Below, piece by piece: positions 1-33,650 of a DNA stretch of 64,000 nucleotides. The notes beneath the pieces were generated by a model. The model saw only the letters and a list, made by a program, of their open reading frames with translations. It did not search any database and was not told the DNA's origin. Numbering within the stretch: position 1 is the first letter of the stretch; each line of letters opens with the position of its first letter. The stretch lies in contig JAFSVJ010000028.1 in the NCBI GenBank assembly GCA_017445025.1, positions 30,707 to 94,706 of the forward strand, in the 5' to 3' direction. Made by a program: the position numbers and the translations under genes. Source of the stretch: Abditibacteriota bacterium (GTDB taxonomy: Bacteria > Armatimonadota > UBA5829).

Positions 1-908
1 CTTTCTATTTCTCTATTAAGATCTGTAGTATTAAAATCGGACAAATCTTTTTCTTTTTCTGATAATCTATCTAAGTCAGGGAAAATTTTATACTTATAAT
101 CCTTAGTATCATTAAAAGAAATACCGGTATATTCTATATCTTTTATGTTGCCACTCTTTTCTCCGATTTTTTCATTTAATCTATCAATTTCTTTTGCCTT
201 TGCTTCATTTTCAACCAACTGCTCAAAATCAAACTCATCTGTAAACTCTTTAAGTTTTCTTTTTGCCTCATCAAGGGCAGTTGCTGATGAATTAAATTTA
301 TCTAAATCAATTAAGTCTTTCCCTATCTTTATTTTTCTATTAAGTTCTTTAATTTGATCGATATTAGCATCAATTTCTTTTTGAAGATCTTTAACTTTAT
401 TCCAAGCTTCTTTTTTACCTTCAATATTCTTTTTATTTATCTCTAAATCAATCATTATTGGTTTTATATCTTCAGTTTTAGTTTTTCTCGGCTTCTTATC
501 AACTAAATTCAAATCACATGTTCCGATTTTAGCCAATAAATCATCATAATTAGAGAATTTTCCGTTTACCAAACTGTCTAAATTCAAGTCATAAAATCCA
601 TCCGGTCTTTCACCAATTGGCATAGACCAAATATCTTCTTCTTTTTCAACATTTGTATCAAAAGTCACCTTTTGTCCGTCAAGAGTTGCTTCACCTTTAA
701 TAGAACCGTAAGTTTCTTTAGATTCATGTCCTCTTTTAAGTCTTTCTCTCCAAATAATACCTTTTATGGCAGAACATAAAGTAGATTTCCCGCTACCGTT
801 TTGACCTAAAACCACATTGATTTTTTTTAAGTTATCTAAAGATAACCTTTTTATTTTTCTGTTTGGATAACTGTCAAGTTTTATGTTTCTTAATTCTAGT
901 TTACTCAT
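1..908 (-). CDS. SbcC/Rad50-like AAA ATPase, N-terminal part (gene continues past window start)
   Basis: Manual minus-strand translation from ATG at 906-908 gives MSKLELRNIKLDSYPNRKIKRLSLDNLKKINVVLGQNGSGKST..., a Walker A motif near the N-terminus followed by Lys/Glu-rich coiled-coil-like sequence. The start overlaps the stop of the upstream phosphoesterase gene by 8 nt, the typical sbcD-sbcC arrangement. Confidence 0.6.
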   Translation of the reverse strand, partial: MSKLELRNIKLDSYPNRKIKRLSLDNLKKINVVLGQNGSGKSTLCSAIKGIIWRERLKRGHESKETYGSIKGEATLDGQKVTFDTNVEKEEDIWSMPIGERPDGFYDLNLDSLVNGKFSNYDDLLAKIGTCDLNLVDKKPRKTKTEDIKPIMIDLEINKKNIEGKKEAWNKVKDLQKEIDANIDQIKELNRKIKIGKDLIDLDKFNSSATALDEAKRKLKEFTDEFDFEQLVENEAKAKEIDRLNEKIGEKSGNIKDIEYTGISFNDTKDYKYKIFPDLDRLSEKEKDLSDFNTTDLNREIE

Positions 909-2181
909 TTTTATCACTCTCCCCCGGCAAAATATCAATTAAAGATTTTCGAATAAACTTCAATAATTCTTCATCATCTAAATAATCATAATAGCCATTA
1001 CGAGCTGGTTCTGTATACTCTTCACTTTGTTCTTTGTATTTAACAAAACTATCACCATATTTTTCAATAAAAGTTCCATCATCAATTGACAATATCATTT
1101 CAGCCACAACACCTATAGCATTAGGTTGTTTTGCCATTTCTCCCAAATTATACACACCTTCTATATTATCAATAAATTCTGATACATAAACATCTTCTGC
1201 CACATAACCGTTTACGGCAGATTGGTTTTCTTCCATTTCTTCTCTGATTTTATCATGTTTTTCTTTTGAAAGATTTCCGATTAGGTTCACCTTATATAAA
1301 TTTAAACTATGTTTACATTCCAAATTTTCATTTAAAATAGAACTTAAAGAATGTTCATCACTAAAATCTGACACATCCGCATCCACTAATTCATAATATA
1401 CTTTTGAAAAAGATTCAAAGCAGAAATTAACCTTATCTAATTTTTCATCTAATTCCAACGTCCAAAAACCATGTTCACCCTTTTCACCAAAATCAAAAGC
1501 CTGAGGAGAACCTAAACTAACATACTTATCTTTTTCTTCTTTTTTATGAGTGTGACCAATTAAAGTAATAATAGAGTTATTTATTACATCACCATTTAAG
1601 CTGTCTTTAAATGGGCCATATTTATTATCTTTTTCATTAGCATTATAATCCCCGTGAATCATAATTATATATTTATCGTCTTCAATTTTTAATTTTATTT
1701 CTTTATTATCTTCATTTTTTAATTTTCTTTTAAATGGATTTGTTTTTAAATCATCATCTAATCCGAAACCGTAAATACTTAATCCATTAAGATCAAACCT
1801 TTGCCACTTGCAACCACAACCTATCAAATGAACGAAAGAATAAGGAGTATTAGATAATAAATCTGAAAGTCGTGACTTATCATGATTTCCCGGAATCATA
1901 ACAACTTCTATATTTTTATCTTTTAGTTTTTCAAAACCGTTATTAAGAATTTGACGTGACGTAAAAGTGGATGTATCCTCATCTAATATATCCCCACAGA
2001 TTAATATAGCATCATAGTTGTTTTGAGAAGCTATATCAATAATATCATACCAAGCTTTTTCCGCAGTAAAATCTTCAATATTATATTTTTCAGGTATTTT
2101 TTTTGAAAAATTACCCAAGTGTAAATCTGCTGTGCAAAGAATTTTCATATTACATTCCTCCTTGTCTTTTTTATTTCTCAA
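901..2181 (-). CDS. SbcD/Mre11-like calcineurin-type metallophosphoesterase (DNA repair exonuclease subunit-like)
   Basis: N-terminus MKILCTADLHLG, then GDILD and GNHD metallophosphoesterase motifs. 426 aa. Translationally coupled to the downstream ATPase. Confidence 0.7.
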   Translation of the reverse strand: MRNKKDKEECNMKILCTADLHLGNFSKKIPEKYNIEDFTAEKAWYDIIDIASQNNYDAILICGDILDEDTSTFTSRQILNNGFEKLKDKNIEVVMIPGNHDKSRLSDLLSNTPYSFVHLIGCGCKWQRFDLNGLSIYGFGLDDDLKTNPFKRKLKNEDNKEIKLKIEDDKYIIMIHGDYNANEKDNKYGPFKDSLNGDVINNSIITLIGHTHKKEEKDKYVSLGSPQAFDFGEKGEHGFWTLELDEKLDKVNFCFESFSKVYYELVDADVSDFSDEHSLSSILNENLECKHSLNLYKVNLIGNLSKEKHDKIREEMEENQSAVNGYVAEDVYVSEFIDNIEGVYNLGEMAKQPNAIGVVAEMILSIDDGTFIEKYGDSFVKYKEQSEEYTEPARNGYYDYLDDEELLKFIRKSLIDILPGESDKNE

Positions 2182-2273: not shown

Positions 2274-2612
2274 TTATTTTATCTCAAGTTTTTGTCTGTT
2301 GCCACATTTGCGACATGTGAAAGTTGTGTTCATACTTATGGAGGCTCTTGTTTCGGAAGAATTCTCCACATTGCCACATTTTTCACACTTTCTACGAATT
2401 GTTATTAAGTGTCCGTCATCTTTTGTGATAACACAACCCTGTATTGCCACACGAGGAGGCTTTTTGGTTCTCTCAAAAATGCTTTCGCTGTCTGTGGTCT
2501 GTGAGCTACTGTAACTACTTGTTTCGTTATCATTTGTGGTGCAACACAGACCTACAAAGCATAAACCCAAAGCCAATACCAACACTACAATTTTTGTTTT
2601 TAAACTCTTCAT
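2274..2612 (-). CDS. small secreted/membrane-anchored protein with C-terminal CxxC...CxxC zinc-ribbon
   Basis: N-terminal hydrophobic signal-like segment (IVVLVLALGLCFVGLCC), a Ser/Thr-rich linker, then CEKCG...CRKCG. Confidence 0.45.
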   Translation of the reverse strand: MKSLKTKIVVLVLALGLCFVGLCCTTNDNETSSYSSSQTTDSESIFERTKKPPRVAIQGCVITKDDGHLITIRRKCEKCGNVENSSETRASISMNTTFTCRKCGNRQKLEIK

Positions 2613-2628
2613 TTTTTATCTCCTTATA

Positions 2629-3687
2629 TTAATAAATATAACCTTTACAGGATAACATAACAGCTTGTGCAAAGCTGTGAGCGCTTGTCCATTTCTCAGA
2701 TAATTCTTTCGGTTTATAAAAAACACTCTCAGTATGTAGTTTCTTTGCTCTCAACAAATCACAACAGATTGAAATAACTTCAAAATTCAATATCTCAAAG
2801 GGACCTATCTCTACCTTAGATTTATCCTTATATAGATAAAATGTCTTTCCGGATTCAATGTAAATAACACAGTTAAGATTAAAACTATCCATTACATCTA
2901 AAACAGATGATATAAACCCTTCCCTATCATCATTTTTAAAGGGAACAAGCAAAGATTGTTCTTCATATTGATGAAGCGTATCGGGGATTGGTTGGTTATT
3001 TCTATAATAACTGTCCCTCAATTGTTCCTTTCGTTCCGCAAATCTTAACTTCTTTTCACGAAGTTTCTTTTTTAAATTCTCGTGCTTTTCTGTATCAACA
3101 CTTAATTGCTTATGTTTCCTTTCAATAATTTCTTTATCACTCAAACCTTCTAAAGAAGCGTTAGAATCAACACCATAAACATTAATTATCACAAAATCGT
3201 GAAATTTAGATAAAAAACCAATCTCATCTGCGGATCTTCCGGGACATACTACGCTAATCCATTTTGTAGCTTTTGAGATTTTTTCAAGATAATCTTCCAG
3301 ACTTTTTTGCTTATCTTCATAATGTGCCTTTTTTGCTTTTTTTATAATATGTTTAACAATATCTGTTTCTTCACTAAGGACATTTAACAAAAATGATTTA
3401 CCGACTTTATTTATAAATATTAATGAATCGGCATAATTTTCATCCTCACTCAATTCAACTATGGATAATATATGTGCTTGTGGGCTGTTTTCTTCTACCA
3501 TATCTTTTGTTAAAGAGTGGCAGGAATATCTGTCCATCTTGTCAAATAATTCTTCACGATACTTAGTGGCTTTCTCTGCTCCGGCAAGGTCGCCTTCTAC
3601 TTCTAAAGCTTTGATTGTACCATAAGCTCGGTTGAACTCTGTGTAGAGCTGCATTGGAATTTCTTTTAATTTTTTTCCTAATAACAT
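2629..3687 (-). CDS. hypothetical protein (352 aa), first gene of operon with zinc-ribbon protein and SbcCD-like pair
   Basis: Long ORF with protein-like composition and no motif I can assign. Its stop is 16 nt upstream of the next minus-strand start. Confidence 0.5.
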   Translation of the reverse strand: MLLGKKLKEIPMQLYTEFNRAYGTIKALEVEGDLAGAEKATKYREELFDKMDRYSCHSLTKDMVEENSPQAHILSIVELSEDENYADSLIFINKVGKSFLLNVLSEETDIVKHIIKKAKKAHYEDKQKSLEDYLEKISKATKWISVVCPGRSADEIGFLSKFHDFVIINVYGVDSNASLEGLSDKEIIERKHKQLSVDTEKHENLKKKLREKKLRFAERKEQLRDSYYRNNQPIPDTLHQYEEQSLLVPFKNDDREGFISSVLDVMDSFNLNCVIYIESGKTFYLYKDKSKVEIGPFEILNFEVISICCDLLRAKKLHTESVFYKPKELSEKWTSAHSFAQAVMLSCKGYIY

Positions 3688-3807: not shown

Positions 3808-3880
3808 TATGGGTGGGGAGATATTTTTCTTTTGTGTCACACTTTTCTCCTTTTCTCTCTCCCCACCCATATATTATAAA
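3808..3880. repeat. perfect 13-bp inverted repeat (atgggtggggaga / tctccccacccat) with ~45-nt spacer, upstream of the 352-aa gene
   Basis: Read directly from the sequence. GC-rich palindrome in an AT-rich leader region. Confidence 0.4.
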
Positions 3881-4007
3881 AAAAAACATCTAACAATCTA
3901 CTTTTAAGAGTAATTAAGTGCCTAAACCATATATAGCCATATTTTCAAAATTGTATATTTCATAAAAATTTATCATATATGACTAATAACACTCTCTGTT
4001 TAGGATT

Positions 4008-4199
4008 CTATTTTTCCAATACCTTTTCTTTAAACTCTTGTGGTAAATCTAAGTATTCAAGAACAACAAAATCTATACCATCTACATTATCTACAATTAA
4101 GTCAACGGCTACTAAATCATCTTTCCCTTTAATCTTATGCTTAAACATTATAACGAGGACACTTAATTTTAACATAGCAGCTACAGGTAAATTATCCAT
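4008..4199 (-). CDS. small hypothetical protein (63 aa)
   Basis: ORF lying 11 nt downstream of the 64-aa ORF on the same strand. No recognisable motif. Confidence 0.3.
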   Translation of the reverse strand: MDNLPVAAMLKLSVLVIMFKHKIKGKDDLVAVDLIVDNVDGIDFVVLEYLDLPQEFKEKVLEK

Positions 4200-4210
4200 A
4201 GATAATTCAA

Positions 4211-4405
4211 TTAATTCTTGAAAAAAGATGCTCTGTCAAAACAGGTCTCTCCATACCCCTCTAACCCTATCATTCTTAAAATGTCACTATTCCATATTAG
4301 GGTTATTGTATCTATTTTGGCTTCGGCTCCTTTGGCAATAAATTTTACCAAATATTGTTTCGTTACGGAGATTATCTCCTTTTCATTTTCGTTTTTTGTT
4401 GACAT
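4211..4405 (-). CDS. small hypothetical protein (64 aa), paralog-like to 15070..15213
   Basis: Preceded by RBS GGAGGTGA. It sits immediately downstream (minus sense) of repeat R1. A C-terminal segment NSDILRMIGLEGYGE resembles VSDLFGSKVVELMGE in the 47-aa gene that follows repeat R2. Confidence 0.45.
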   Translation of the reverse strand: MSTKNENEKEIISVTKQYLVKFIAKGAEAKIDTITLIWNSDILRMIGLEGYGETCFDRASFFKN

Positions 4406-4435: not shown

Positions 4436-4545
4436 AAGGTTTTTCCCCTTCCATATATATATAGTCATATTTCCACCCAAAATTGCCATTTTTTCAAAAA
4501 ATTTTTTTTAAAAAAAGTGATACCATGTTTTCACATAGTATCACT
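4436..4545. repeat. ~110-bp direct repeat R1 (terminator hairpin plus putative promoter module); second copy at 15321..15446
   Basis: Shared core ccttccatatatatatagtcatatttccacccaaaattgccattttttcaaaaaa plus gataccatgttttcacatagtatc in both copies, with small indels. Confidence 0.8.
4508..4543 (-). terminator. putative rho-independent terminator for the island-1 operon (inside repeat R1)
   Basis: Minus strand reads gatactatg-tgaaaac-catggtatc, a 9-bp stem with one G-U pair, followed by a U-run. Confidence 0.4.
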
Positions 4546-4635
4546 AAATAAATCTTAAATATATGAATTGTAATTGGATGATAATTTTACAATCACAATT
4601 CACATAAAGGCTTAATTTTAATATTGATAAAAATC

Positions 4636-6228
4636 TTACCAATTATTTCTGCGTTTTGCCCACAATGATTGTGCTTCTTTCACTAAATCATACATAAACT
4701 CTCTAACCATACCCGAAAACAAATTATCAATACTAGTATCCGGGAATAATTCATTAAATGCTTCTAATATATGAAGAATATAGTCAGGAGTGGCTGTAGG
4801 CAAAACATATTTATTCCTAAGATAAATTGAATCATGAGGACCAAAATCATCAAAGAATTCAACTGTCTTACTCTTTCCTGCTTTAATATAATTATAAAAG
4901 TCTTTTTCCAACTTTAAGTGTTTTTCTTCTTTTACTATTCTTTCCCACGCAGCTCGACCAAATAAATCTTTAACAGAGAATTTTATTTTCATTCCTGAAG
5001 GAAGAAGGGAAGCCAAAGCCAAAGCTATATCCAAAAGAGAGTCCAATTTTGGATACATTAAATTCTTTATACTATTCCAAACTATTTTACCCACAAAATC
5101 TTCCAAATTCAAAGGTTTAACACTATGTGATGAAAGCCAATGATCTTCTGTTATAATTATATCATCATCACCAAATTCTTTATCTAATCCTTCAATATTA
5201 TCGAACGATCCACCTTCGTCATCATATTCCATTTCATCATAATCTTCATCATTTATGTCTATTCCGGAAAATATTATATTAAAGGCCCTTAAAATGCCTA
5301 AAATATAATCTAAATCTGCAGGTGGTAATTTGACACTATTTCTTTCATAGAGTGTTTCTTCTACCGGGCCGTTATCCTCAACAATTTCTATAGATTTACT
5401 TTTTCCCTCTTTGATATAATTATAAAAGTCTTTAAAAAGCTTTTGATCTTCTTCAGCACCAACAATTCTATCCCAAGCTTTTTTGCTAAAGAGTTTGCGA
5501 ATATTAAATTTAATTCCCTTGCCGGCAGGAAGAAGATTTGCCAAAGCAATAGCAATTTGGAGCAAGGTTCGTGGTTTTTTGTTATGATTATCTATAGTAT
5601 TTTTAATTAAAACGCCAAAAATGTCACATTTATCTAAAGGATACTCTTCAGGGAATAAAGCATTAAAGGAATCCATAATCTCTCTTATATATTCCTCGTC
5701 TGCGGGAGGCAAAACCACATCATTTCGCTTGTATATAGCTAATTTAGGGGTGATATCATTATAGATTTCAAGAGCAGCTTCTTTTTTGGCTTTAACATAA
5801 TCATAGAATTCTTCTGTAAGACCGGAATATAAGCCATATTTTTTGATTCTCTTCAAAGCTTCTCTGCTAAACAATTCCTCTATTCTAAACATGGTATTGA
5901 AAGGCAAGAGGCAAGCTAATCTTACAGCTATTTCCAACAATGTCAATTTTCTCTTGGATTTGCCAGATGAAATTGTTTTTACAATATTATTATTACTCCT
6001 AAGAGATAATTTTGTATAGATTTTTAATGACTCAGAAAGAGTGATTAAATCCAAATCAGATTTATCTCTAAGGTTTTCAAATTCCTCTTCAACTTCTTGA
6101 GCTAATTTTAATGCTTTAATTTCATCCCACAGAGATGCATTAAATAAAGCTGATACGGTAAAAGCGGAATCTTTAGGTTTGTTCATTGCCTCGCTTATGG
6201 CAATCTTTGCAATGGTTTTAGGGTCCAT
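4636..6228 (-). CDS. hypothetical protein with three tandem ~110-aa internal repeats (last gene of island-1 operon)
   Basis: Three repeat units each contain LLxIAxxLAxLLPxG ... FxxKxW(D/E)RI ... LPPAD(x)DYIxxIxxxFN. The start is 17 nt downstream of the SNF2 gene stop. Confidence 0.6.
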   Translation of the reverse strand: MDPKTIAKIAISEAMNKPKDSAFTVSALFNASLWDEIKALKLAQEVEEEFENLRDKSDLDLITLSESLKIYTKLSLRSNNNIVKTISSGKSKRKLTLLEIAVRLACLLPFNTMFRIEELFSREALKRIKKYGLYSGLTEEFYDYVKAKKEAALEIYNDITPKLAIYKRNDVVLPPADEEYIREIMDSFNALFPEEYPLDKCDIFGVLIKNTIDNHNKKPRTLLQIAIALANLLPAGKGIKFNIRKLFSKKAWDRIVGAEEDQKLFKDFYNYIKEGKSKSIEIVEDNGPVEETLYERNSVKLPPADLDYILGILRAFNIIFSGIDINDEDYDEMEYDDEGGSFDNIEGLDKEFGDDDIIITEDHWLSSHSVKPLNLEDFVGKIVWNSIKNLMYPKLDSLLDIALALASLLPSGMKIKFSVKDLFGRAAWERIVKEEKHLKLEKDFYNYIKAGKSKTVEFFDDFGPHDSIYLRNKYVLPTATPDYILHILEAFNELFPDTSIDNLFSGMVREFMYDLVKEAQSLWAKRRNNW

Positions 6229-6245
6229 TTGTTTCTCCTTTTTAT

Positions 6246-9200
6246 TTAGTGTTTTTTATTTTCATATCCTACTATTATTTTGGTTTCTTTTTCCTCAGTC
6301 CTGTTTATAGAATTGATATATTTGGATTTACCTAAATCTTCATACAATTCTGTTATTTTTGCTTCCAATTTATCATCATCTTTCCAATCTTTGATTTTTC
6401 TATAATCAAAAGTTGACAAAGTCCCTAATCCTGTAATATCATCTATAAGGGCTTTTATGAAATCTTTATACTTGGCGCAAGAATGATATCTGTCTTTCTT
6501 TATTATACCTTCAAGAGACTTAAGAGTATTATAGGCTTTTTCTTCATCTCCCTTTTTAGGTAAAGAATGTCTGATTCCTGCATTAACATCTATAAGCTTA
6601 GGATACATATTCCAGAAATTATCGGAAAAAGTTTCAAGTGGGGTATCCGGGTCACACTTGATTTTATCTATCAAATCCTTATTAAGCTTGGTCTCAACAT
6701 AACTTTTGCTTGTATCAAAATTAAAGTGGCGAACAAACATATCATTTTTAAGAATAAAGAGTATTAATTCATTGTCTGTGCCTAATTTACAGGTTTTGAT
6801 TCTGTAAGGCATTTTATCAATATTCTTTAATGCTTCCTGAACTTTAGGATCTGTGCTTTCTTCAATGGATTTATAGAGTTTTCGAACATAAGTGTAAAAG
6901 CTCTCTTCTTCATCCTCATAAGGCAACTTATGTAACGCTTCGGAAAGCTCCGCCGCAGTAGGCTCTTCATCCGGAGTGAAGATTTTGGCATCTTCACCTA
7001 AAATATTGTGAATCAACAGCATTTTTTGAGTGGCAATTTGTTTAACTCGAACAGTGTCGGAAGTTAATTCTGAAGGGAAGAAGTTATAAATGTAAAGTTT
7101 GTCAAAGACTTTTGCGGAAATTCTGTTCATTCTTCCCACTCTTTGAATAACACGCACCGGGTTCCAAGGAATATCATAGTTTATTACAACACCGGCTCTG
7201 TTAAGGTTATGTCCTTCACTCATTTTATCCGTAGAAACAAGAATGTGTTTATCGTTAGTTTGGTCTTTGCAAGAATAATCAAATTCTTTTTCTATTTCTT
7301 CAATTTTTATACTGGAACCATAGACATATTCTATGTCATCTCTATGTAATCCGTCAAATTTATTCCTTAGATGTTTAACTGTATCCGCAAATTCTGTAAA
7401 TACCAATATTTTTCTATTAGGTTCTTTTGCTTTGATTCCATCTACAATTTTAACCAATTCTTCAAACTTAGGGTCTTTATCAACCATCTTAAGGTCTTCA
7501 CACCTTTCTTTAATTTTGGTAAATAAATCTATATCTTTTTTAATATCCTCTAAAAAATCCGCTTCGCCTGAAGGGGTAAATTCATATACATCATATTCTT
7601 TTCCCTTTTTGGCTTGCATTTCTTTTAACTTTTCTAAAACTTCATCATCATCCAAATCGACACAATCTGTCATAAATTTTCTGTTTAATACATAATAACC
7701 ATTAGTTGTGACAAAGGAATATATTTCAATATTTGTTTGAAGATATCTTTTAACGGATTCATAAAAAGCACCAAAAGAAGACTCAAGTCTTTTAACTATG
7801 ATTCTTTTCATAAAATCATACAATTGATCTTGATACTGTTTTGCCAATTTCTTAGATACAGAATTCTTTGCATCATAATTTACAGGACGATAAATAGCTC
7901 CTATAAAATCTCCGCCGGTTTTAGAAAAATACCTCAATATATCATCATAAAAATCTGATAAATCCGGCTCTAAAAAATATAAAGCTTCTCTGGGGTCTTC
8001 AATGGTAGAAAGGTCTCCTGTTTCTTTTTTATAATCCGGGTTGTTTAATATATCAAGTCTGTTTCTTCTTATAATATAACTTGAAATATCATCTTTGACC
8101 TCTCCCCCAACATCTTTCATCATTTTGTGCAATTTATCAATCTCAGGTTTACCTATTGAAGCAACTTTAACGCCGGGCAAGTATTTACTCAATAATCTAT
8201 CAATCTTAGCTAATTTTGCAGGATCTGTAGATCTATAATCTTTAATAATAGAATTAATATCTTCTATACGAGCTTTAACATCCATAAACTTTTCAAACAA
8301 AGAATATCCATAGGATGCAGATACAAATTTAGTAGGTAAGAACAATTTTAAAATACTATGAATATCCCAAAAGGTGTTATTGAATGGAGTAGCGGTTAAT
8401 AAAATAACTTTTTTGTTTTTACAGATAGTATTTAGATAACCATAGGTATCGTTTTTGTCATTTCTAAACCTATGAGCTTCGTCGATAATTACATTATCAA
8501 AATCAGAATATAATTTTCTCTCATAAATATACTTTAAATTGGAAAAGCTTGAAGATTCAACCTCACCTCGTATATTAAATTTATACTTATAATCTTTCCA
8601 ACCATATGAACCTGGTTCACCTATAAGATTAGGTGGACACAAAATAAGAGTGTTACCTGGCAATTGGGTGGCTATTACAGAAGCAATAATACTTTTTCCG
8701 AGACCTACAACATCACCGAGAATAACTCCACCATAGTCTTCTATTTTACCCAAAGCCTCACGAATAGCATCTATTTGAAATCTAAAAGGCTTAAATCCGG
8801 CTTTATCCAATATTTGAGGAATATTTTTATCATCTTCCATATCCAATGACAGATAGGTTTTTAGTATATAGATATAGGCTTCATAAGGGGTCACCTTTCT
8901 GCAATGGGTTTCCTTAGTCAAGATTTCAATAATATCTTTCTTTATAGAATCATCTTCGGTAATTAAAATAGCATCTCTCCAAAGATTTTCAAAATATTCA
9001 TCTGCTTCAATATAATCTTTAGCATGATTTACTTCAACATTAAATTCATCTTGACGGAACAAACCGGCAGATGTAAAATTGGAAGACCCGGTTATAAAAC
9101 GATTGTCTTTTCCATCTTTAGGATAGGCAAAGAGATATAATTTTGAATGATTATCTTTATTGGTTTTACGGATGATGATTTTTCCTTCTTTAATCCATTT

Positions 9201-9521
9201 TATAAAATCCTCATATTGGTCGTAAAACTCTTTTTTATCCAGAGCTTCAGAACAAAAGTTTTCTCTGACAGAAGAGAGAAATTTCTCAACGCCTTCACCG
9301 GAAATAGCCTTAACTATAATACTCTCGGAATTAAGGCCCACAAGTATTCTTAATTTAAGGTCATTCTTTTCAGCTTTGGCTTTTAGTTCTTGGTAGAGTT
9401 CCGGGATCGCGGAAAAATAGAAGTATCCCACCAAGAATTTCATTTCTGTAGATGTAGGAATTAAATCTTGAAATTTGGCTTTTAATGTGGTTGTGTCGTT
9501 ATTAATAATTAAGTTTGGCAT
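6246..9521 (-). CDS. fused phospholipase-D-family nuclease / SNF2-family (SF2) helicase
   Basis: N-terminal HKD motif NHSKLYLF...GSSNFTSAG. Helicase motifs: I (GDVVGLGKS), II (IIDEAHRFRN), III (LLTATPFNN) and VI (VIQRVGRMNRI). 1091 aa. Confidence 0.8.
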   Translation of the reverse strand: MPNLIINNDTTTLKAKFQDLIPTSTEMKFLVGYFYFSAIPELYQELKAKAEKNDLKLRILVGLNSESIIVKAISGEGVEKFLSSVRENFCSEALDKKEFYDQYEDFIKWIKEGKIIIRKTNKDNHSKLYLFAYPKDGKDNRFITGSSNFTSAGLFRQDEFNVEVNHAKDYIEADEYFENLWRDAILITEDDSIKKDIIEILTKETHCRKVTPYEAYIYILKTYLSLDMEDDKNIPQILDKAGFKPFRFQIDAIREALGKIEDYGGVILGDVVGLGKSIIASVIATQLPGNTLILCPPNLIGEPGSYGWKDYKYKFNIRGEVESSSFSNLKYIYERKLYSDFDNVIIDEAHRFRNDKNDTYGYLNTICKNKKVILLTATPFNNTFWDIHSILKLFLPTKFVSASYGYSLFEKFMDVKARIEDINSIIKDYRSTDPAKLAKIDRLLSKYLPGVKVASIGKPEIDKLHKMMKDVGGEVKDDISSYIIRRNRLDILNNPDYKKETGDLSTIEDPREALYFLEPDLSDFYDDILRYFSKTGGDFIGAIYRPVNYDAKNSVSKKLAKQYQDQLYDFMKRIIVKRLESSFGAFYESVKRYLQTNIEIYSFVTTNGYYVLNRKFMTDCVDLDDDEVLEKLKEMQAKKGKEYDVYEFTPSGEADFLEDIKKDIDLFTKIKERCEDLKMVDKDPKFEELVKIVDGIKAKEPNRKILVFTEFADTVKHLRNKFDGLHRDDIEYVYGSSIKIEEIEKEFDYSCKDQTNDKHILVSTDKMSEGHNLNRAGVVINYDIPWNPVRVIQRVGRMNRISAKVFDKLYIYNFFPSELTSDTVRVKQIATQKMLLIHNILGEDAKIFTPDEEPTAAELSEALHKLPYEDEEESFYTYVRKLYKSIEESTDPKVQEALKNIDKMPYRIKTCKLGTDNELILFILKNDMFVRHFNFDTSKSYVETKLNKDLIDKIKCDPDTPLETFSDNFWNMYPKLIDVNAGIRHSLPKKGDEEKAYNTLKSLEGIIKKDRYHSCAKYKDFIKALIDDITGLGTLSTFDYRKIKDWKDDDKLEAKITELYEDLGKSKYINSINRTEEKETKIIVGYENKKH

Positions 9522-9618
9522 TTTTTACCTCAAAACAATTAGTATACCCTAAAACTCGGAGAGTTTCTTGGAGGGGATTTTACCACTCTTTGTAAAATCA
9601 CAAAGAGGGGTAATATCA

Positions 9619-11460
9619 TTATATTTTTTTAAAAATCAAATTAACCAATTCTGTAGCTATTTCTTCCCCTCGCTCAGTTATATCTTTCCAAGTAGTAAAA
9701 GTAGTATAGCTTTCAGAATCAATTAAGGCATTTCTCTTGCTTGTTATTGGATCTTTATAAAATATCCTGGTATTTCCGATTTTATTTAAGCAAGAATCTT
9801 TAAAGTTTTTGTAAAGTTTATCCTTACACTCCTTAGGAAAATCACAACCGGATTTATAAACTGTTATACCATTATCATCATCTAAACCATCCATATAGTA
9901 TTGATATGAAGGATCAGAAGAACTTGGATTTTCGGGACATATATAATCTAAAATAAGCTCATCAAAATCTAAATCCAATAAATTATAAGCTTCTTTATAA
10001 TCAATGGTTCCTGATCCTTTTACGGATGCCATATAAAAAGCCAATAATATCATTGCCAACTTATTCTTATATGCATTCATATTTATAATTTCGGACAGAA
10101 CTGAACTATCAGGCAACTTGTTTATATAAGAATCTATTGTAGAAATTATATTAGTTATATTATAAGGTATGGTTTTATCAATCATATATCCCAATATATC
10201 TTTATACAAAGGAATTGAATCTTTACTGTCCCTATTGCAAACTGAAAGATATAAAAAAGAGTGTAGAATTACTTTTGAAACTGCATCTTCTACTTCCTTG
10301 GCAGTCAAAAAGGTTTCTTTATAATCATGCAAAAGTCTGAATATAAATGGCTTTGGATGTTTGTAGGAACCGTTTACAAATATTTTATAGAAAAATTTGA
10401 ATTTATCTCTGTTGATTAAGGTATATGTTTTATCTTCTGAGGTCAACATTTGATAAAACTCAACTTTATCATTTAAATCATCCAAGAATTTCTTCAAAGC
10501 TTCCGTTTCATCGCTTACACCATAATATTCTACCAATTCGTCTACAATCGTTTTTTTGAAATGACTTATTTTAATATTATTATTGTAAAACTTGATAAAA
10601 GCCTTTATATAAGTAGTTAAATAGTCATATAATTGGTCATTGGTTTTAATAATAAGATTTCCCCAAACAGACAAATAATGATGATGACTGGCTTCATCAA
10701 GTTTTGAGAAAATATAAGTCTTTATAAGATCTATATCTTCCAATTGTTTTCCTTTGGAATTAATTGATTCAAAGATAGAGAAAACTTTGGTTTGTTTGCA
10801 GTTGGAATCTATCACTATAAACCTAACAAAATTTAACAAATACTCGGCAAAAGCCAATAAATCATTAGAATCCGAAAATTCTTTTTTCAAATATTGATTT
10901 ATAAACTTAAAATTATCTATAACTCTTTTTTCAAAAGAATTGGCCGGGACAAATGATGAAATAAAATCGTCTATATTGGTGGGATCGTCAAATGCATAAT
11001 CAAATAATTGAGCAAAACAGGTTTTTTCTATACTGTTTAGGGAAATTAATCTTTGATCTTTGATATGTTTCCTGCCGACAACTTTCCATAAACAATTCTT
11101 CAATTTTACAATTGTTAAATCGCTTTCAGGTTCTCCGTTTTTTAATGCTCTTGTATATACTGACAAAAAAATCAAGGCAAAGGTGGTTATTCTTTGTTGA
11201 CCGTCTATAATATCATAAATGTTAATGTTTCCGTTAATTTTAGGTAAGGGAGTCTCATAAATTATAATATTACCGGTGTAATATCCTTCACTTCTTTCAT
11301 CAATATCGGTTAAATCAAAGACTTCTTTAATATCAATCAACAACTGATCAATATTTTCCTTATCCCAAGAATAAGGTCTTTGATACACAGGAACTGTGTA
11401 AGCTGACTTGAATAAATCTTCCAAGTCCATTGAAGCGGGGTCAAAAGTTTTTTTTGGCAT
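9619..11460 (-). CDS. DUF262 (ParB/Srx-like) + C-terminal DUF1524-like nuclease; GmrSD/BrxU/SspE-like type IV restriction-like enzyme
   Basis: N-terminal YQRPYSW and DGQQRITT motifs typical of DUF262. 613 aa with a C-terminal Cys/His-containing region. The start is 21 nt downstream of the MTase stop. Confidence 0.7.
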   Translation of the reverse strand: MPKKTFDPASMDLEDLFKSAYTVPVYQRPYSWDKENIDQLLIDIKEVFDLTDIDERSEGYYTGNIIIYETPLPKINGNINIYDIIDGQQRITTFALIFLSVYTRALKNGEPESDLTIVKLKNCLWKVVGRKHIKDQRLISLNSIEKTCFAQLFDYAFDDPTNIDDFISSFVPANSFEKRVIDNFKFINQYLKKEFSDSNDLLAFAEYLLNFVRFIVIDSNCKQTKVFSIFESINSKGKQLEDIDLIKTYIFSKLDEASHHHYLSVWGNLIIKTNDQLYDYLTTYIKAFIKFYNNNIKISHFKKTIVDELVEYYGVSDETEALKKFLDDLNDKVEFYQMLTSEDKTYTLINRDKFKFFYKIFVNGSYKHPKPFIFRLLHDYKETFLTAKEVEDAVSKVILHSFLYLSVCNRDSKDSIPLYKDILGYMIDKTIPYNITNIISTIDSYINKLPDSSVLSEIINMNAYKNKLAMILLAFYMASVKGSGTIDYKEAYNLLDLDFDELILDYICPENPSSSDPSYQYYMDGLDDDNGITVYKSGCDFPKECKDKLYKNFKDSCLNKIGNTRIFYKDPITSKRNALIDSESYTTFTTWKDITERGEEIATELVNLIFKKI

Positions 11461-11481
11461 ATTTGCCTCCTTAAAATTTAA

Positions 11482-14400
11482 TTATTTTTCAATTATTTTA
11501 ATTTCGTCATCAGTTAGATCATAAAGCTGATACACAAGGGTGTCGATTTCTTTTTCAAGGCTTGTGGTGTCCTTGCCTTGCTTTTTGCCCTCTGTAATTT
11601 GATCCACCAAATTCTCTATTTGATTGGCTATCTGCATGTTATCATCTTTTATTTCAGGAATAGGAAGTTTAATAACATCTTGAGTAAACCATCTTACAGC
11701 ATTTGTTCCTAATGAATTTCCATAATATGATATAAATGCATATCTTATTAATCTTGAATTTAATAAACCACAAATATATTTTACATTATTACCTGTAAGC
11801 ATATAACAAGTATTTAATAAATAATAACATTCATAATCATATATCATTTCTCCATCTGATATATCAGCCCATATAATTTTAGGTTTTTCATAATCTTTAT
11901 AATAATTTATTGTAGTTTGAGTTTCATACCATTTTCCAGAGGTTTTACTTCTTGCCTTAAAAGAACCATAATTTTTACCTGTCTGTTCAAGTCTTCTTTT
12001 ATCAAAATTATCTAAAAAGTATTTTTCAATTGTGGGATAATCTTTTATATTCAAATGTAAAGCCGGAAAAATTCCTATCACCCACAAATTAGCCCAATGA
12101 TATTCATATCTCTTTACATCTGAACCACGCAAGATGGGTTTAATTATTTTCTCCGTTCTCTGTCGTTCGGCAGATGTGGAACAGTTGTTTAAAATCTCGT
12201 CTTTGGTAGCTGTATCTATAATAAAAGCGTCATTAAAGCCGGTTTTAATACCATAATTAATGGTAATATCATCCCATTCTCCTAATGGTGTGCCTATATG
12301 CTCTATTTTTTTCTTTAGTGATACTTCTTCTCTTGATCCTATAAACCAACTGTCACTTGATAATTCTTTTAATATGACAGAATTATTGGTTATATAATCT
12401 CCCAAATTATCTTTAGGATTTTGACCTTTTCCCACCTTTAATGAACAAGCTTCAAGATCATAATGTATTTTTTCCTTTTTAATCAATAATATATTTGTAT
12501 CTACAGTTGCACTGTCAAAGACTCCGGGGCCTAAGTCTATCAACATCTTGGGGTTAAAATTGCAGAAATAGCCTCTTAACTTTTCACCATATCCGGCACG
12601 CATCCATTTGTTGGAGGTGATATAACATAAATTACCACCTGTCTTTAACAAATTCATTCCTTTTTCATAAAATAAACAATATATATCTCCACTACCATCA
12701 TGGGTTTCAAAACCTTGGGAAGCATATCGGTCTCTTAAATCTTTAGGTTTTATTTTTTGAAGTGGTATATAAGGCGGGTTTGCTATAACAATATCAAATC
12801 CTTCTTCAATACCAAACATCCATTTCGGATCAAACCAAGGGCAGGATTTGTTCTCAAAAGGATTCCAATCACATATAAACTGAATTCTTTCACTATCAGA
12901 ACCAATTTCTATGGCCTCATCTCTTATATTTTTTAATTTATATAAATACTCATCTTTTAATCTGTCTTTATCGTTTCCATGAGCATTTAAATAATCTTTT
13001 CTTATTTTTTGTAAATCTTTAATATCATTATCAAAATAACTATCGGAAAGATCTTTTGAGTCCGGTAAAGCAATTAAAGTATTGGCAGATACAAATTTAA
13101 AATCCAAATTAGGCAAAGGGAAAATATTTCTGTTTTCAACACCATCGTCTACTCTTTCATCTACAATTAAAGATAAAAAACATCTAAGCCTTGCAATATC
13201 CGTAGCCATGGTTTGTATATCCACACCATAAACAGAATTTCTGATAATTCCCAACTTATGTATATAACTTATGGCTTCTTGATTAAGTTTTGTTTCATAA
13301 GCCTCAAAAGCTTCCGTTAAAGTTGTTTTATCATGAGCCAGTATATAGTTTCTCCATAACTTTCCGTCGACATCCAATTTCCCTAAAATAAATAATATCT
13401 TCTGTAGCAGTCCCATAGGAAAGGCACCGGAACCACAAGCGGGATCAAGAATCTTAATATTGTATAAAGCTTCTGTTAATATTACTGTGACACATTGATC
13501 AAAAGGATTAGTCTCTTCATTAACGTCAAACAATTTATCTAACTTATCTTTATCTTTACAGAATTTATACAAATACTCCTTTAAACTCTCTTCACACATA
13601 TAATCCACTATTTCTCTAGGAGTATAAAAAGAACCGGAAGACTTTCTTGCATCTTCTTGGGTGACAGGATCTATAAATGCCAAAAGGTTTTCAAATATTT
13701 TACCCAACATTTCAGGGTCCACAGATATATCTGTATCGTTTACAGAGTTTTCATCTATAGTAAAATTAAATCTCCCGAATAAATCAAATAGTTTTATAAA
13801 CCATTGATTTGAAACTTTTAACACACCTGTGTTTGAATAATCACCTTTGTATTTATCTTCATCAATACATTGGAACAAACCACCGTTTAAATAAGGAACA
13901 AAATTAAAGTCATTTTGAGAAACAATATTATTATTTAATGTTTTATTATATTCTGTATAATCTCTTAAAGATTTGTTCTTATTAAGAACTTCAAAAAACA
14001 ATGTTTGTAGAACATAAGTATAGTATCCGCAATCGGAAGTCATTTTTTCAATAGTTTCAATACTTAAAATCTTATCCGGAATAATCTCCTTTCCTTGAAT
14101 TGATTTCTTTTGTTTCAAAAACCAACAGAATAAAATTCTTCCCAACAAACGAATTATAAATTTATTCTTATCTTCTTCCAATCCTTGATATTTCATCAAA
14201 GTCTTATCATTTTGTAAAGACAAATATAAGTCTTGAATTTCTTTATAAAATTCTTTTGTTACTTTTTCGATGGAGAAGGAGTCTGATAAGTCTTCAACCT
14301 TAAGCCACCTTTGATATTCTCCGGAAGAAGTCCGGTTTGCCACATATTTTTCAAAAGTCTTGTTGTTCTTAACAACCAATTCACCCTCATCATTTTCTTC

Positions 14401-14868
14401 CATTTGGAAAAAATGGGTTTGTCTGTTATACTTTGTAAACTCTACCTTTCCTTCACCGGGATAGATTTTTCTGACAAGGGACAGACGACAAGAAAGACTG
14501 TCGTTGTCATAAAAAGCCACCAAAGCAAAATCATAATCACTGCTTTTAATCAAATCCTTGATAATCTTAAACTGAAAAGATTTACTGCTTTTTTCCGTTA
14601 AGTTGTGGGACTTATCTTCACCTTTTTTTTCATTATACTCACTTACATAATCTTTATAATTGATTAAATAGCAAATAACATTATCGGAGCTGATTTTTCC
14701 ATATCCCAATTCTGTGATTGGACAACGGTTATCATCTGTAGTCTCCCTTGTTTTAGCTTCATCAATAATAGGATTGAATTTTCTTCTGATTAAGTCTGAT
14801 AAATAGGATTCTAATTTTGTTGGTGTTTTTGCCATTTTTAATTCTCTGTCATAATAATCGTTTAACAC
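11482..14868 (-). CDS. large gamma-class N6-adenine DNA methyltransferase (PglX / DrmMI / type IIG-IIL-like), 1128 aa
   Basis: Motif X GSFYTPREIVDYM, motif I ILDPACGSGAF, motif IV IANPPY. Long N- and C-terminal extensions, the C-terminal one TRD-like. Confidence 0.8.
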   Translation of the reverse strand: MLNDYYDRELKMAKTPTKLESYLSDLIRRKFNPIIDEAKTRETTDDNRCPITELGYGKISSDNVICYLINYKDYVSEYNEKKGEDKSHNLTEKSSKSFQFKIIKDLIKSSDYDFALVAFYDNDSLSCRLSLVRKIYPGEGKVEFTKYNRQTHFFQMEENDEGELVVKNNKTFEKYVANRTSSGEYQRWLKVEDLSDSFSIEKVTKEFYKEIQDLYLSLQNDKTLMKYQGLEEDKNKFIIRLLGRILFCWFLKQKKSIQGKEIIPDKILSIETIEKMTSDCGYYTYVLQTLFFEVLNKNKSLRDYTEYNKTLNNNIVSQNDFNFVPYLNGGLFQCIDEDKYKGDYSNTGVLKVSNQWFIKLFDLFGRFNFTIDENSVNDTDISVDPEMLGKIFENLLAFIDPVTQEDARKSSGSFYTPREIVDYMCEESLKEYLYKFCKDKDKLDKLFDVNEETNPFDQCVTVILTEALYNIKILDPACGSGAFPMGLLQKILFILGKLDVDGKLWRNYILAHDKTTLTEAFEAYETKLNQEAISYIHKLGIIRNSVYGVDIQTMATDIARLRCFLSLIVDERVDDGVENRNIFPLPNLDFKFVSANTLIALPDSKDLSDSYFDNDIKDLQKIRKDYLNAHGNDKDRLKDEYLYKLKNIRDEAIEIGSDSERIQFICDWNPFENKSCPWFDPKWMFGIEEGFDIVIANPPYIPLQKIKPKDLRDRYASQGFETHDGSGDIYCLFYEKGMNLLKTGGNLCYITSNKWMRAGYGEKLRGYFCNFNPKMLIDLGPGVFDSATVDTNILLIKKEKIHYDLEACSLKVGKGQNPKDNLGDYITNNSVILKELSSDSWFIGSREEVSLKKKIEHIGTPLGEWDDITINYGIKTGFNDAFIIDTATKDEILNNCSTSAERQRTEKIIKPILRGSDVKRYEYHWANLWVIGIFPALHLNIKDYPTIEKYFLDNFDKRRLEQTGKNYGSFKARSKTSGKWYETQTTINYYKDYEKPKIIWADISDGEMIYDYECYYLLNTCYMLTGNNVKYICGLLNSRLIRYAFISYYGNSLGTNAVRWFTQDVIKLPIPEIKDDNMQIANQIENLVDQITEGKKQGKDTTSLEKEIDTLVYQLYDLTDDEIKIIEK

Positions 14869-15069
14869 CGGTCAAAATTTGGTGCAAAACCACCTCTATT
14901 ATACATCAAAAAAAAAAAAAGCAAATCACAAGTCATTTTTGGTGGGATGAAAGAAAAAAGTGCTTTTTTAAGCCAAAAACAAACAATTTCTCTCAAACTC
15001 GTCCTCTGTCACCGGAAAACCTACTTATAAGATTAAATTAATTTGGAATGCATTTGCATCTGTGGATAT

Positions 15070-15213
15070 TTATCTCTCTATACTCTCCCCCATTAATTCC
15101 ACAACCTTTGATCCAAATAAATCGGATACAGTTAAATCCGTCCCTTTTGGAAATCTTATTGCCGCTAAAATGGCAAATGCCAATTTAACAAATACATTCG
15201 TTTTTGAATCCAT
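15070..15213 (-). CDS. small hypothetical protein (47 aa), not in ORF track
   Basis: Manual translation gives MDSKTNVFVKLAFAILAAIRFPKGTDLTVSDLFGSKVVELMGESIER. A GGAGGT RBS lies 3 nt upstream. It sits just downstream (minus sense) of repeat R2, mirroring the 4211..4405 gene after R1. Confidence 0.4.
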   Translation of the reverse strand: MDSKTNVFVKLAFAILAAIRFPKGTDLTVSDLFGSKVVELMGESIER

Positions 15214-15320
15214 AACCTCCTTTTTATTAAATTGTAAGAAATTTCATTTCCTTATCCATTTATTATATTCCAATCTTTCTAAAAATCTACTTTTTCAAAT
15301 CAAGAGGTTTATTTATACCC

Positions 15321-15446
15321 AAGGTTTTCTTTTCTCCCTTCCATATATATATAGTCATATTTCCACCCAAAATTGCCATTTTTTCAAAAAAAATTTTTAA
15401 ATATTTTTTGACAAAAAAAAAGATACCATGTTTTCACATAGTATCT
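15321..15446. repeat. direct repeat R2 (copy of 4436..4545)
   Basis: Same core sequence and hairpin as R1. Confidence 0.8.
15411..15445 (-). terminator. putative rho-independent terminator downstream of dxs (inside repeat R2)
   Basis: Minus strand: 9-bp stem gatactatg/catggtatc, 6-nt loop, then a 9-U run. Confidence 0.45.
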
Positions 15447-15473
15447 TATTCTTACGAGTTTAAGGGGTAAGGA

Positions 15474-17372
15474 TTAAAACATATCTATTATGGTTTGGGC
15501 TATGGTTTGAGGATCTAAGCCCAGTTTCTCAAAAAGCTTGTCCACGGAACCGTGTTCTATATATTCGTCAGGCAAGGTGAAAGATTTTTTTAGGAGATTG
15601 CCCTTTCCTATTTGGGTCAAATAGGCTCCCACCAAGGATCCGAAACCACCTTCTGCCACATTTTCTTCAAAAGTAAATATATAAAAGTTTTCCTTAGCCA
15701 CTTTTGATATATATTTCTTATCGAGAGGCTTTACAAAACGGGCATCCCAAACCTCTATATTAAAATCTTTTTTTAACAGCTCTTTTACTTTCAAAGCGGT
15801 ATAGCACATTCTTCCGCATGCCATAAAGACCATTGGAGGGGTTTTTGTTTTAAACAAATGTTTTAATCCCAAAGGCTCGGCAGGGCTTATTACCACACCT
15901 TTACCATATTCTAATTTTTCTTTTCCAATAGTATAAAGTGTAGGGCTTGCACCTCTCGGATACCTAATAGCAACAGGAGAGTTTATATCCAGAGATAACT
16001 TTATTGCTCCTTCCAAATCATTGACATCCTTAGGGGAAATAATGGTAATATTAGGAATATTGCTCAAATATGAAATGTCAAACATACCATGGTGAGTTTG
16101 TCCGTCCTCCCCTACCAGTCCGCTTCTGTCTATCATCAAAACCACAGGGAGATTTTGCATACAAATATCATGGTTAATTTGATCGTAGGCTCTCTGCAAA
16201 AAAGTGGAATAAATACATACAAAGGGCTTCAAGCCACCTTTAGCAAGTCCCGCACCAAAGCTGACAGCATGTTCTTCGCTCATCCCTACATCAAAAAATC
16301 TGTCCTTAAAAGTCTTTGCAAATTCACTTAGTCCGCACCCGTCGGGCATAGCCGCTGTGACAGCAACTATTTTTTTATTATCCTCTGCCAAATCACATAT
16401 AGTTTCGCTGAAAACATTGGTCCAAGAAATGTTGGTTTCCTTTTTCTCAGCTACTCCGTCAACTATATTAAACTTGCCTATACCGTGAAATTTAGCCGGG
16501 TTTTTCTCAGCAAACTCATATCCGTGTCCCTTTTGAGTAATAATATGAACCACGGTAGAAGATCTGTTTTGCTTTGCCCCTATTAAAGCTCTTTCCACAT
16601 CTTCGATTTTATGGCCGTCATAAGGTCCTATATAGGTAAGCCCCCATTCTTGAAAAAACACACCCTTAACTGACTGAAAAAGACGAATAAAACCGTGATA
16701 GAGACCTATACATGTATCTGCCACAACTCTTCCCCCGGGAATAAACTTTATACTTCTTTTCACAGTCTTTCTCGTTCTGTTTAGTCGATATTTCAAACGA
16801 AGGGTTGAGAAATTTTTAGCAAGAGCACCCACACTTTTAGAGATGGACATCTCATTGTCATTTAACACAATAATAACATTTGAGCCTAAGGAAGATAGAT
16901 TATTAAGGGCTTCAAGAGCCATACCGTTTCCTATGGATGCGTCCCCTATAACCACCACAATGTGACCGTTTTTGCCTTCAAGGTCCCTTGCTTTTGCCAA
17001 TCCCATAGCAAGAGATATTGAATTTCCGGAATGTCCGGTTATGAAATGGTCATGTTCACTTTCATTTGTATTTGTAAAACCGGAAAGGCCTCCAAAGGTT
17101 CTTAAAGTCTGAAACTCCTCTCCTCTGCCGGTTATAATCTTATGAGCATAAGATTGGTGACTTACATCCCATATTATTTTATCTTCCGGAGAATTAAAAA
17201 CAGAGTGTAATGCAACTGACAATTCCACCACGCCCAAATTAGAGGAAAGGTGACCGCCGTTTTTTGACACTACCTCTATTATCTTTTCTCTAAGATAATC
17301 CGCATATTTATATTTTTCCTTCAAAGTCAACTGTTTCAAATCTGAAGGACTTTTAATTTCATTATAATCCAT
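15474..17372 (-). CDS. dxs: 1-deoxy-D-xylulose-5-phosphate synthase
   Basis: GHLSSNLGVVELSVALHSVF, a GDASIGNGMALEALN TPP-binding region, and the transketolase-like C-terminal domains. 632 aa. Confidence 0.9.
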   Translation of the reverse strand: MDYNEIKSPSDLKQLTLKEKYKYADYLREKIIEVVSKNGGHLSSNLGVVELSVALHSVFNSPEDKIIWDVSHQSYAHKIITGRGEEFQTLRTFGGLSGFTNTNESEHDHFITGHSGNSISLAMGLAKARDLEGKNGHIVVVIGDASIGNGMALEALNNLSSLGSNVIIVLNDNEMSISKSVGALAKNFSTLRLKYRLNRTRKTVKRSIKFIPGGRVVADTCIGLYHGFIRLFQSVKGVFFQEWGLTYIGPYDGHKIEDVERALIGAKQNRSSTVVHIITQKGHGYEFAEKNPAKFHGIGKFNIVDGVAEKKETNISWTNVFSETICDLAEDNKKIVAVTAAMPDGCGLSEFAKTFKDRFFDVGMSEEHAVSFGAGLAKGGLKPFVCIYSTFLQRAYDQINHDICMQNLPVVLMIDRSGLVGEDGQTHHGMFDISYLSNIPNITIISPKDVNDLEGAIKLSLDINSPVAIRYPRGASPTLYTIGKEKLEYGKGVVISPAEPLGLKHLFKTKTPPMVFMACGRMCYTALKVKELLKKDFNIEVWDARFVKPLDKKYISKVAKENFYIFTFEENVAEGGFGSLVGAYLTQIGKGNLLKKSFTLPDEYIEHGSVDKLFEKLGLDPQTIAQTIIDMF

Positions 17373-33289: not shown

Positions 33290-33650
33290 CGGTGGTGTTG
33301 TTGGCTTAGATTGTTAGGCTTCTATCTCGCAAGCGAGTGAATACATAAATTTGCAATTCTATGCAAATTTATTCCTGACCACCCACCACAATCCAAATCC
33401 CTAAAAGTTTCGCACGGCCCCCCCACGGGAAAATCAAAGATTTTCCTCGTAGCCCCCCTAAAGGGGGTTCATTGATAGAAAAGCGAAACTTTTTGGGATT
33501 AGGGCAAGCAGTTGTCGTTTTTACAAAAAAGCGATGCTTTTTTGCCGCAATTCAACCTTGGATGAAAGGAATTTGCGGTTGCAAATTCAGTTCAAGGAGG
33601 GTGAGTGCCTACAATTCACCCCCAAACCTATGGTTTAGGGGAGAGAGAGA
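33290..33650. repeat. GC-rich mosaic interspersed repeat copy, related to 48230..48470 (inverted), 60170..60262, 34560..34680, 38380..38660 and 49268..49393
   Basis: tctatctcgcaagcgagtgaatacataaatttgcaattctatgcaaatttattcctgaccacccacc recurs as its reverse complement at 48393..48460. GC palindromes such as cccccaaacctatggtttagggg are present. Confidence 0.6.

Follow-up and report, generated by a model that had tools for sequence, protein, structure and literature searches.

How can a block of restriction genes that brings no recombinase of its own enter or leave a bacterial chromosome? The question is raised by a 64,000-nt stretch of an Abditibacteriota bacterium (assembly GCA_017445025.1, contig JAFSVJ010000028.1, positions 30,707 to 94,706; hereafter the window), in which a restriction/defence island of about 10.9 kb, organized as an operon of five open reading frames (ORFs), follows dxs and is bracketed by two direct repeats of about 110 bp. 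We found both repeats, each with a long identical core and a hairpin, as a preliminary description of the window had reported, together with a metagenomic contig that matches the site expected if the island were absent. Gain or loss of the island by host homologous recombination between the repeats, which are duplicates of the intergenic module downstream of dxs, is the explanation that we prefer, and we give it an even chance of being correct.

Read on the minus strand, which carries all genes at this locus, each repeat runs from a hairpin and U-run through an A/T-rich spacer into a 56-nt core (Table 1). The repeat search returned the two copies in two parts, a 72-nt pair (4440–4511 and 15330–15401; 93% match) and a 52-nt pair (4491–4542 and 15394–15445; 85%), with a start-to-start spacing of 10,890 nt. 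The longest exact blocks common to the copies are the core (4446–4501 and 15336–15391) and 24 nt of the hairpin (4519–4542 and 15422–15445), and each of these occurs exactly twice in the window with up to three mismatches allowed, where none is expected by chance; a sensitive blastn search with a word size of 7 found no further copy of the module in the window. The copies are not identical in the spacer, where a 13-nt indel and several substitutions set them apart. Their similarity stops at ...GGAAGGG, 40 nt before the start of a 64-aa ORF at copy A and 122 nt before that of a 47-aa ORF at copy B, and past the core the two loci are unrelated in sequence. On the other side, copy B begins 26 nt past the stop codon of dxs and copy A begins 90 nt past that of the 530-aa gene with which the island ends.

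An exact-protein look-up of the genes beside each copy gave ten ENA contigs, from at least five assemblies and several samples, with BioSample names consistent with a ruminant gastrointestinal metagenome study (PMC8199421). Their junctions were typed from the sequence next to the core, of which up to 150 nt per side was matched to the four flanks that are possible there. Five contigs (L001, L008, L009, L011 and L012) carry the dxs–core–47-aa junction and three (L004, L005 and L006) the 530-aa–core–64-aa junction, and one of the ten starts past the core. The remaining contig, L007 (ena:ERZ28654536, XIEF21-1_SAMN15829909_METAG-scaffold_386566; sample SAMN15829909; 658 bp), is the only one with a dxs–core–64-aa junction, which joins the left flank of copy B to the right flank of copy A. 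All typed flanks matched at 150 of 150 positions, except for the right flank of L001, which matched at 140 of 140 up to the contig end. In order, L007 contains the 3′ end of dxs, the hairpin with its copy-B flanks, the copy-B spacer, the core, the right end of copy A, the 64-aa gene and a 63-aa gene, and it is identical at 658 of 658 positions to the empty site predicted by joining the left part of B to the right part of A through the core. The preliminary description had foreseen just such a site, with dxs, a single repeat, the small gene and no island, and in this one scaffold it was found. By its sequence, L007 would thus represent the island-free site, with a crossover inside the 56-nt core.

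The island would then be a presence/absence polymorphism in a natural population of uncultured ruminant-gut Abditibacteriota, and a single reciprocal crossover within the identical core would convert one state into the other. The island may have popped out by deletion between the direct repeats, or the popped-out circle may have re-inserted in the opposite, Campbell-type reaction. In either product a terminator would still follow the upstream gene and the downstream gene would still be preceded by the same core, so that the transcription units would be intact in both states. Such changes have precedents in recombinase-free turnover of gene content by homologous recombination and in defence hotspots without identifiable mobilization (PMC3787668, PMC10121019). 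In our case, searches of Pfam, PHROGs, NCBIfam and PADLOC with the ORFs tested in the island, in the adjacent block and in the rest of the window found no integrase, transposase or resolvase, and the window holds no tRNA. With none of these found, we favour recombination between the repeats by the host's homologous machinery; its RecA-type mechanism is inferred, and its direction may have been either loss or gain. The preliminary description had proposed either recombination between duplicated modules or an att-like duplication; the empty site with its hybrid repeat supports such an event, whereas for the att version no recombinase was found among the ORFs tested in the window.

Several observations weigh against this explanation. 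An identity of 56 nt is short for efficient RecA recombination, and the recombination model leaves the origin of the second repeat copy unexplained. The copies differ in the spacer, yet contigs of different samples show no differences there, which suggests that the duplication is the older event: it may have arisen before the sampled population did, or else selection or gene conversion may keep hairpin and core identical. The core, proposed to supply the downstream gene with a promoter, contains no consensus promoter by the criteria of our scan. A circle junction (530-aa–core–47-aa) was seen in none of the ten contigs, which, assembled at low coverage, would rarely catch a rare circle. Copy A is internal to a larger variable region rather than at its edge, as the gene order of a relative shows (see below). 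Finally, the empty site is a single short scaffold from a sample in which the organism has low coverage. Throughout the samples the organism is rare (contigs of 0.6–7 kb), and paired assemblies, apparently of the same read sets, have coinciding contig ends that abut (3910/3908) without a k overlap.

These last points bear on a rival reading, in which the duplicated module flanks the island and L007 is an assembly chimera glued through the core, leaving no evidence for movement or loss at the repeats. The core, at exactly 56 nt, equals one k + 1 edge for k = 55, so that a de Bruijn assembler with this largest k merges both copies into one edge, and a chimeric join is possible if the other two arms are thinly covered; L007 has arms of only 222 and 380 nt, low coverage, abutting contig ends and no single-nucleotide polymorphism (SNP) marking a separate strain. 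The assemblies of the original study were made with MEGAHIT and IDBA-UD (k = 90–124; PMC8199421), values at which a 56-nt repeat cannot cause a mis-join, and a chimera would be ruled out if L007 came from those IDBA-UD runs; its record name, of the form 'XIEF21-1 ... METAG-scaffold', suggests instead that it may be a third-party re-assembly. Three contigs from the same pipeline (L004, L009 and L011) cross the core correctly, however, the reciprocal join (the same 530-aa–core–47-aa sequence as in a circle) is not seen among the contigs, the 47-aa gene was not recovered from the sample of L007, and deletion between direct repeats is expected a priori. We therefore regard a chimera as unlikely, if well worth keeping in mind, and L007 as probably genuine.

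Two other readings accept the junctions and interpret the repeats differently. The repeats could be attL and attR of a site-specific element that has lost its integrase or never had one, in the manner of a cis-mobilizable element or of an island mobilized in trans, and is moved by a tyrosine or serine recombinase encoded elsewhere in the genome, a reading that agrees with direct repeats at the exact island ends, a one-copy hybrid empty site with the crossover within the identical core, insertion immediately 3′ of a conserved housekeeping gene and an island G+C content (GC) below that of the backbone. It fits poorly with the lack of a recombinase among the ORFs tested in the island and across the 64-kb window, of a tRNA target, and of a circular junction among the contigs. 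The homologous stretch is long, with an entire terminator hairpin on the 5′ side of the core, and looks more like the duplicate of a working intergenic region than like a minimal att core; no inverted-repeat arms for recombinase binding are obvious in the core when read by eye. Exact 24-mer scans for the core in genome_contigs, metagenome_contigs and viral_contigs, and for the hairpin in metagenome_contigs and viral_contigs, gave 0 matches; the lineage is essentially missing from the scanned collections, the nearest JGI dxs being only 62% identical. Annotated plasmids and phages likewise gave no match to the island (megablast) or to the module (blastn). We hold this site-specific reading to be quite improbable. 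It is hardly credible, in our judgement, that the module belongs to a multicopy intergenic family, similar to repetitive extragenic palindromes (REP) or miniature inverted-repeat transposable elements (MITEs), and flanks the island by coincidence. The module is indeed short, intergenic and hairpin-bearing, and only 64 kb of the genome were inspected; yet among the 26 intergenic regions of at least 80 nt it has just two copies, which lie in the same orientation at the same variable locus, the breakpoints of the polymorphism coincide with the repeat, no such repeats flank a second restriction island in the window, and there is no sign of terminal inverted repeats or target-site duplications round the copies. 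Nothing in Rfam matched any part of the window.

Table 1 Coordinates of the repeats, genes and signals discussed in the text, numbered from the first letter of the window
Feature	Position	Strand	Remarks
Repeat copy A	4436..4545	−	Same intergenic module as copy B; 3′ of the island's last gene, 5′ of the 64-aa ORF
Repeat copy B	15321..15447	−	Intergenic module directly 3′ of dxs: hairpin, U-run, A/T spacer, 56-nt core
56-nt core, copy A	4446..4501	−	Contains TTGAAA-N15-GTGG-AAATAT, a sub-consensus extended −10-like layout
56-nt core, copy B	15336..15391	−	Identical to the copy-A core; putative crossover inside
Hairpin A	4516..4545	−	Predicted intrinsic terminator of the island operon; 13 pairs, tail TTTTTTAAAA
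Hairpin B	15420..15447	−	Predicted intrinsic terminator of dxs; 12 pairs, tail TTTTTTTGTC
Possible decayed third copy	3929..3971	−	Upstream part of the core; gapped local score 38
dxs	15474..17372	−	1-Deoxy-D-xylulose-5-phosphate synthase; one conserved anchor of the locus
47-aa ORF	15070..15213	−	First ORF in the island; GGAGGT ribosome-binding site; no family match
Type IIG-like restriction/N6-adenine methyltransferase	11482..14868	−	Eco57I, TaqI_C and MmeI-like domains
GmrSD_N (DUF262) family protein	9619..11460	−	Type IV restriction-like
PLD(HKD) nuclease domain–SNF2 helicase fusion	6246..9521	−	DrmD-like helicase region
530-aa orphan	4636..6228	−	C-terminal DUF1413 domains; last gene of the island
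64-aa orphan ORF	4211..4405	−	GGAGGT ribosome-binding site; in the empty-site contig L007 it comes after the one hybrid repeat
63-aa orphan ORF	4008..4199	−	Co-linear with the 64-aa ORF
352-aa and 112-aa near-orphan genes	2274..3687	−	Perfect TTGACA-17-TATAAT promoter at 3734-3706; not in the relative L002
sbcD-like (901-2181) and sbcC-like (3-908) genes	3..2181	−	Other conserved anchor; directly after dxs in the relative L002
Near-perfect promoters	3734-3706, 18935-18907, 21784-21756, 24644-24616	−	Common consensus TTGAmA-N13-GTGG-TATAAT

The ends of two contig groups deserve mention. L001 (ENA ERZ27256806, k141_613669; contig positions 2380–2575), a MEGAHIT contig assembled at k = 141, ends exactly 140 nt (k − 1) past the last base of the core; this could be chance, or it could mark a graph branch at the boundary of core and island in that sample. 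Contigs of three samples and two assembly series break at 3901–3910 (ends at 3910, 3910 and 3901; next start at 3908), probably through a drop of coverage in very AT-rich sequence, or alternatively at a structural variant.

The variable part of the locus extends beyond the repeats. In L002, the nearest relative with usable gene context, whose dxs is 75% identical, dxs is followed directly by genes for Metallophos (SbcD-like), AAA_23 (SbcC-like) and GH1 proteins, and the SbcD-like protein is 40% identical to that of the window (E = 5e-100). The order in the window is dxs, about 13 kb of variable genes, and then sbcD–sbcC. The adjacency of dxs and sbcD in L002 therefore delimits a variable region of about 2.2–15.5 kb, which is wider than the bracketed island and comprises that island and a block of orphans (64, 63, 352 and 112 aa). 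GC is 0.28–0.32 in the island and 0.34–0.40 in the backbone, and the low values run on leftwards to position 1. The preliminary view that the island lies exactly between the modules thus holds for the 10.9-kb unit, but not for the variable region as a whole.

In the orphan block, just before the 352-aa gene, lies the intergenic region that, of the 26 in the window, scores highest in gapped alignment with the module (38; next best, 31). A score of 38 was reached in 2 of 500 dinucleotide shuffles, which is marginal after multiple testing; from its sequence, 3929–3971 may be an old, decayed third copy. Upstream of the promoter of the 352-aa gene there is also a perfect 14-nt inverted repeat, TATGGGTGGGGAGA ... 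TCTCCCCACCCATA (3809–3871, minus strand), with a purine-rich loop of about 35 nt; the 5′ arm of this inverted repeat is similar to the end of the repeat core that reads GGAAGGGAGAAAAG.

It is conceivable, although we consider it a long shot, that the module is a recombinase-free site of cassette accretion at which new blocks enter beside dxs through the core. A terminator/promoter module would come with each block or be rebuilt on its entry, and blocks that had entered earlier would move further downstream as their own copies of the module decayed. If true, accretion would explain the intact pair round the newest block, which would be the restriction island, the marginal third copy before the 352-aa and 112-aa genes and the adjacency of dxs and sbcD in L002, and it would amount to an integron-like architecture without an integron integrase.

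How the locus compares with known systems depends on which trait is considered. It resembles the minimal mobile elements of Neisseria and the defence hotspots of E. coli and P. aeruginosa in that a restriction/defence block lies between conserved anchors (here dxs and sbcDC), is absent in a relative and comes with no integrase or transposase (PMC3787668, PMC10121019); gene content here does vary between conserved flanks, as judged from one informative relative. Unlike in minimal mobile elements, the exchange would take place in the duplicated intergenic module of about 110 bp rather than in flanking genes, and with the exchange point in the island's own repeats, loss would be possible within a single cell. 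Islands generated by integrases, including integrase-less cis-mobilizable elements, likewise have direct repeats, a one-copy hybrid empty site, a position 3′ of a conserved gene and atypical GC. Of the traits that define integrative elements, flanking repeats and a single-copy empty site (in one scaffold) were found at this locus; a recombinase in or beside the element was not found among the ORFs tested in the window, and nor was a tRNA target, and the ten low-coverage contigs, which would rarely catch a rare circle, hold no circular junction. The repeat, unlike att cores, holds a whole terminator and a promoter-like region. With integron arrays the locus shares hairpin repeats that separate gene blocks downstream of a fixed point, and possibly a decayed copy further on. 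However, we found no intI in the window; the 'cassette' is a 10.8-kb multi-gene operon with promoter-like sites of its own, rather than a short promoterless cassette ending in attC; and the hairpin is an ordinary terminator with a U-run, unlike an attC site with R and L boxes. Two copies within 64 kb also set the module apart from multicopy REP- or MITE-like families.

Taken as a case of gain and loss, the locus is an ordinary new example of a familiar process, recombination between repeats, and not a new kind of element. Its value lies in offering a concrete case, from a barely studied phylum in the ruminant gut, of how a defence island that carries no mobility genes may be gained or lost, and so a mechanism-level example that bears on the turnover of 'immobile' defence islands.

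The hairpins of both copies behave in silico as intrinsic terminators. A scan of the minus strand called both, with T-rich tails, where 0.1–0.5 sites are expected in shuffled sequences, and the minus-strand RNAs fold at −18.4 (A) and −16.6 (B) kcal/mol (z = −5.7 and −4.8). The plus-strand folds are weaker (−12.6 and −10.5 kcal/mol), because a G–U wobble of the minus strand stands where the plus strand has a C–A mismatch. Outside the identical 24-mer the stem is extended in both copies, with two compensatory pair changes (T–A and G–C in A; A–T and A–T in B). Each copy thus has the marks of a Rho-independent terminator, a stem-loop followed by a U-run on the coding strand past a stop codon, and the terminator claimed in the preliminary description, with its minus-strand U-run behind a gene stop, is borne out by scan, folding and position alike.

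The promoter part of that description fared less well. Our scan required σ70-type −35 and −10 hexamers, a spacer of 16–18 nt, at least 9 of 12 matches and TAnnnT in the −10 hexamer, and it called no site inside the core of either copy. The best layout in the core is TTGAAA-19 nt-AAATAT with an upstream TG, in which A2 and T6 of the −10 hexamer are kept; it was not called because of its 19-nt spacer and only 3 of 6 hexamer matches. The TATATAT-rich stretch that had been taken for a promoter is not a consensus one, and a (TA)n run cannot give a TAnnnT hexamer. Compared by eye with consensus sequences, the core fits neither a σ54 promoter nor a dif/Xer-like site. The genome's own promoters match the consensus more closely: four intergenic sites score 11–12 of 12 and have the upstream TG, and for two of the four a predicted terminator lies exactly 49 nt upstream. 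A terminator followed within about 50 nt by a promoter therefore appears to be a recurring intergenic layout here, which the core would mimic; we call the core promoter-like only, and its promoter activity putative. The extended consensus of the four sites is a useful promoter model for an uncultured phylum.

The small ORFs that follow the repeats are present as the preliminary description gave them, each behind a GGAGGT ribosome-binding site; their proposed paralogy is not upheld. BLASTP aligns the 64-aa and 47-aa proteins at 5 of 15 identical positions with E = 2.4, which rules it out, and the DNA similarity of the two loci ends before the ribosome-binding sites. The 47-aa ORF has a promoter-like site of its own at 15258–15231, outside the repeat. 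Neither protein has a family match, and a homologue search, made for the 64-aa protein only, returned nothing but the protein itself among 5.8 billion proteins.

The cargo of the island is very divergent from characterized systems. Gene callers place the start of the type IIG-like gene at 14835, and its product matches the PADLOC model REase_MTase_IIG at 1e-170. The helicase is best matched by the PADLOC candidate model 'HKD+Snf2' (C3a139). The island belongs to neither DISARM nor BREX by score, since its partial similarities stay far below the cutoffs (DrmD, 117 of 610 bits; PglX, 80 of 500 bits), and family searches found no DrmA, DrmB, PglZ or BrxC in the island; its gene set (4636–14868) matches no complete PADLOC or NCBIfam system. 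These genes may form an undescribed multi-gene restriction/defence system, which could interest researchers of such systems. Relatives of the helicase in species-representative genomes are only 27–31% identical, so that the origin of the island is not traceable. An exact look-up of the GmrSD and helicase proteins found neither on record, because other samples carry SNP variants.

Near-orphan proteins adjoin the restriction genes on both sides of copy A. The 530-aa protein found only itself in a word-index search of 5.8 billion proteins, and the 352-aa protein (2629–3687) has two relatives (88% identical over part of its length and 47% over all of it) among 1.84 billion representatives; sequence searches of the PDB gave nothing significant, and single-sequence AlphaFold2 models have very low mean confidence (predicted local distance difference test of 39 for the 352-aa and 36 for the 530-aa protein). 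The N-terminus of the protein encoded by the 112-aa ORF (2274–2612) is hydrophobic and signal-like; the protein contains two CxxC pairs, as in a zinc ribbon, and its only family match is trivially weak, to a zinc-finger segment of Cas12f (E = 8e-4).

A second restriction island of low GC (0.27–0.32) occupies 26955–33124 of the window, between uvrC (24767–26617) and lytB/ispH (33628–34479). It has no flanking direct repeats of at least 25 nt and no recombinase, and its genes encode a HARE-HTH protein of 374 aa, a 1330-aa fusion of a ResIII helicase and an Eco57I-type methyltransferase, and a 357-aa protein without a family match.

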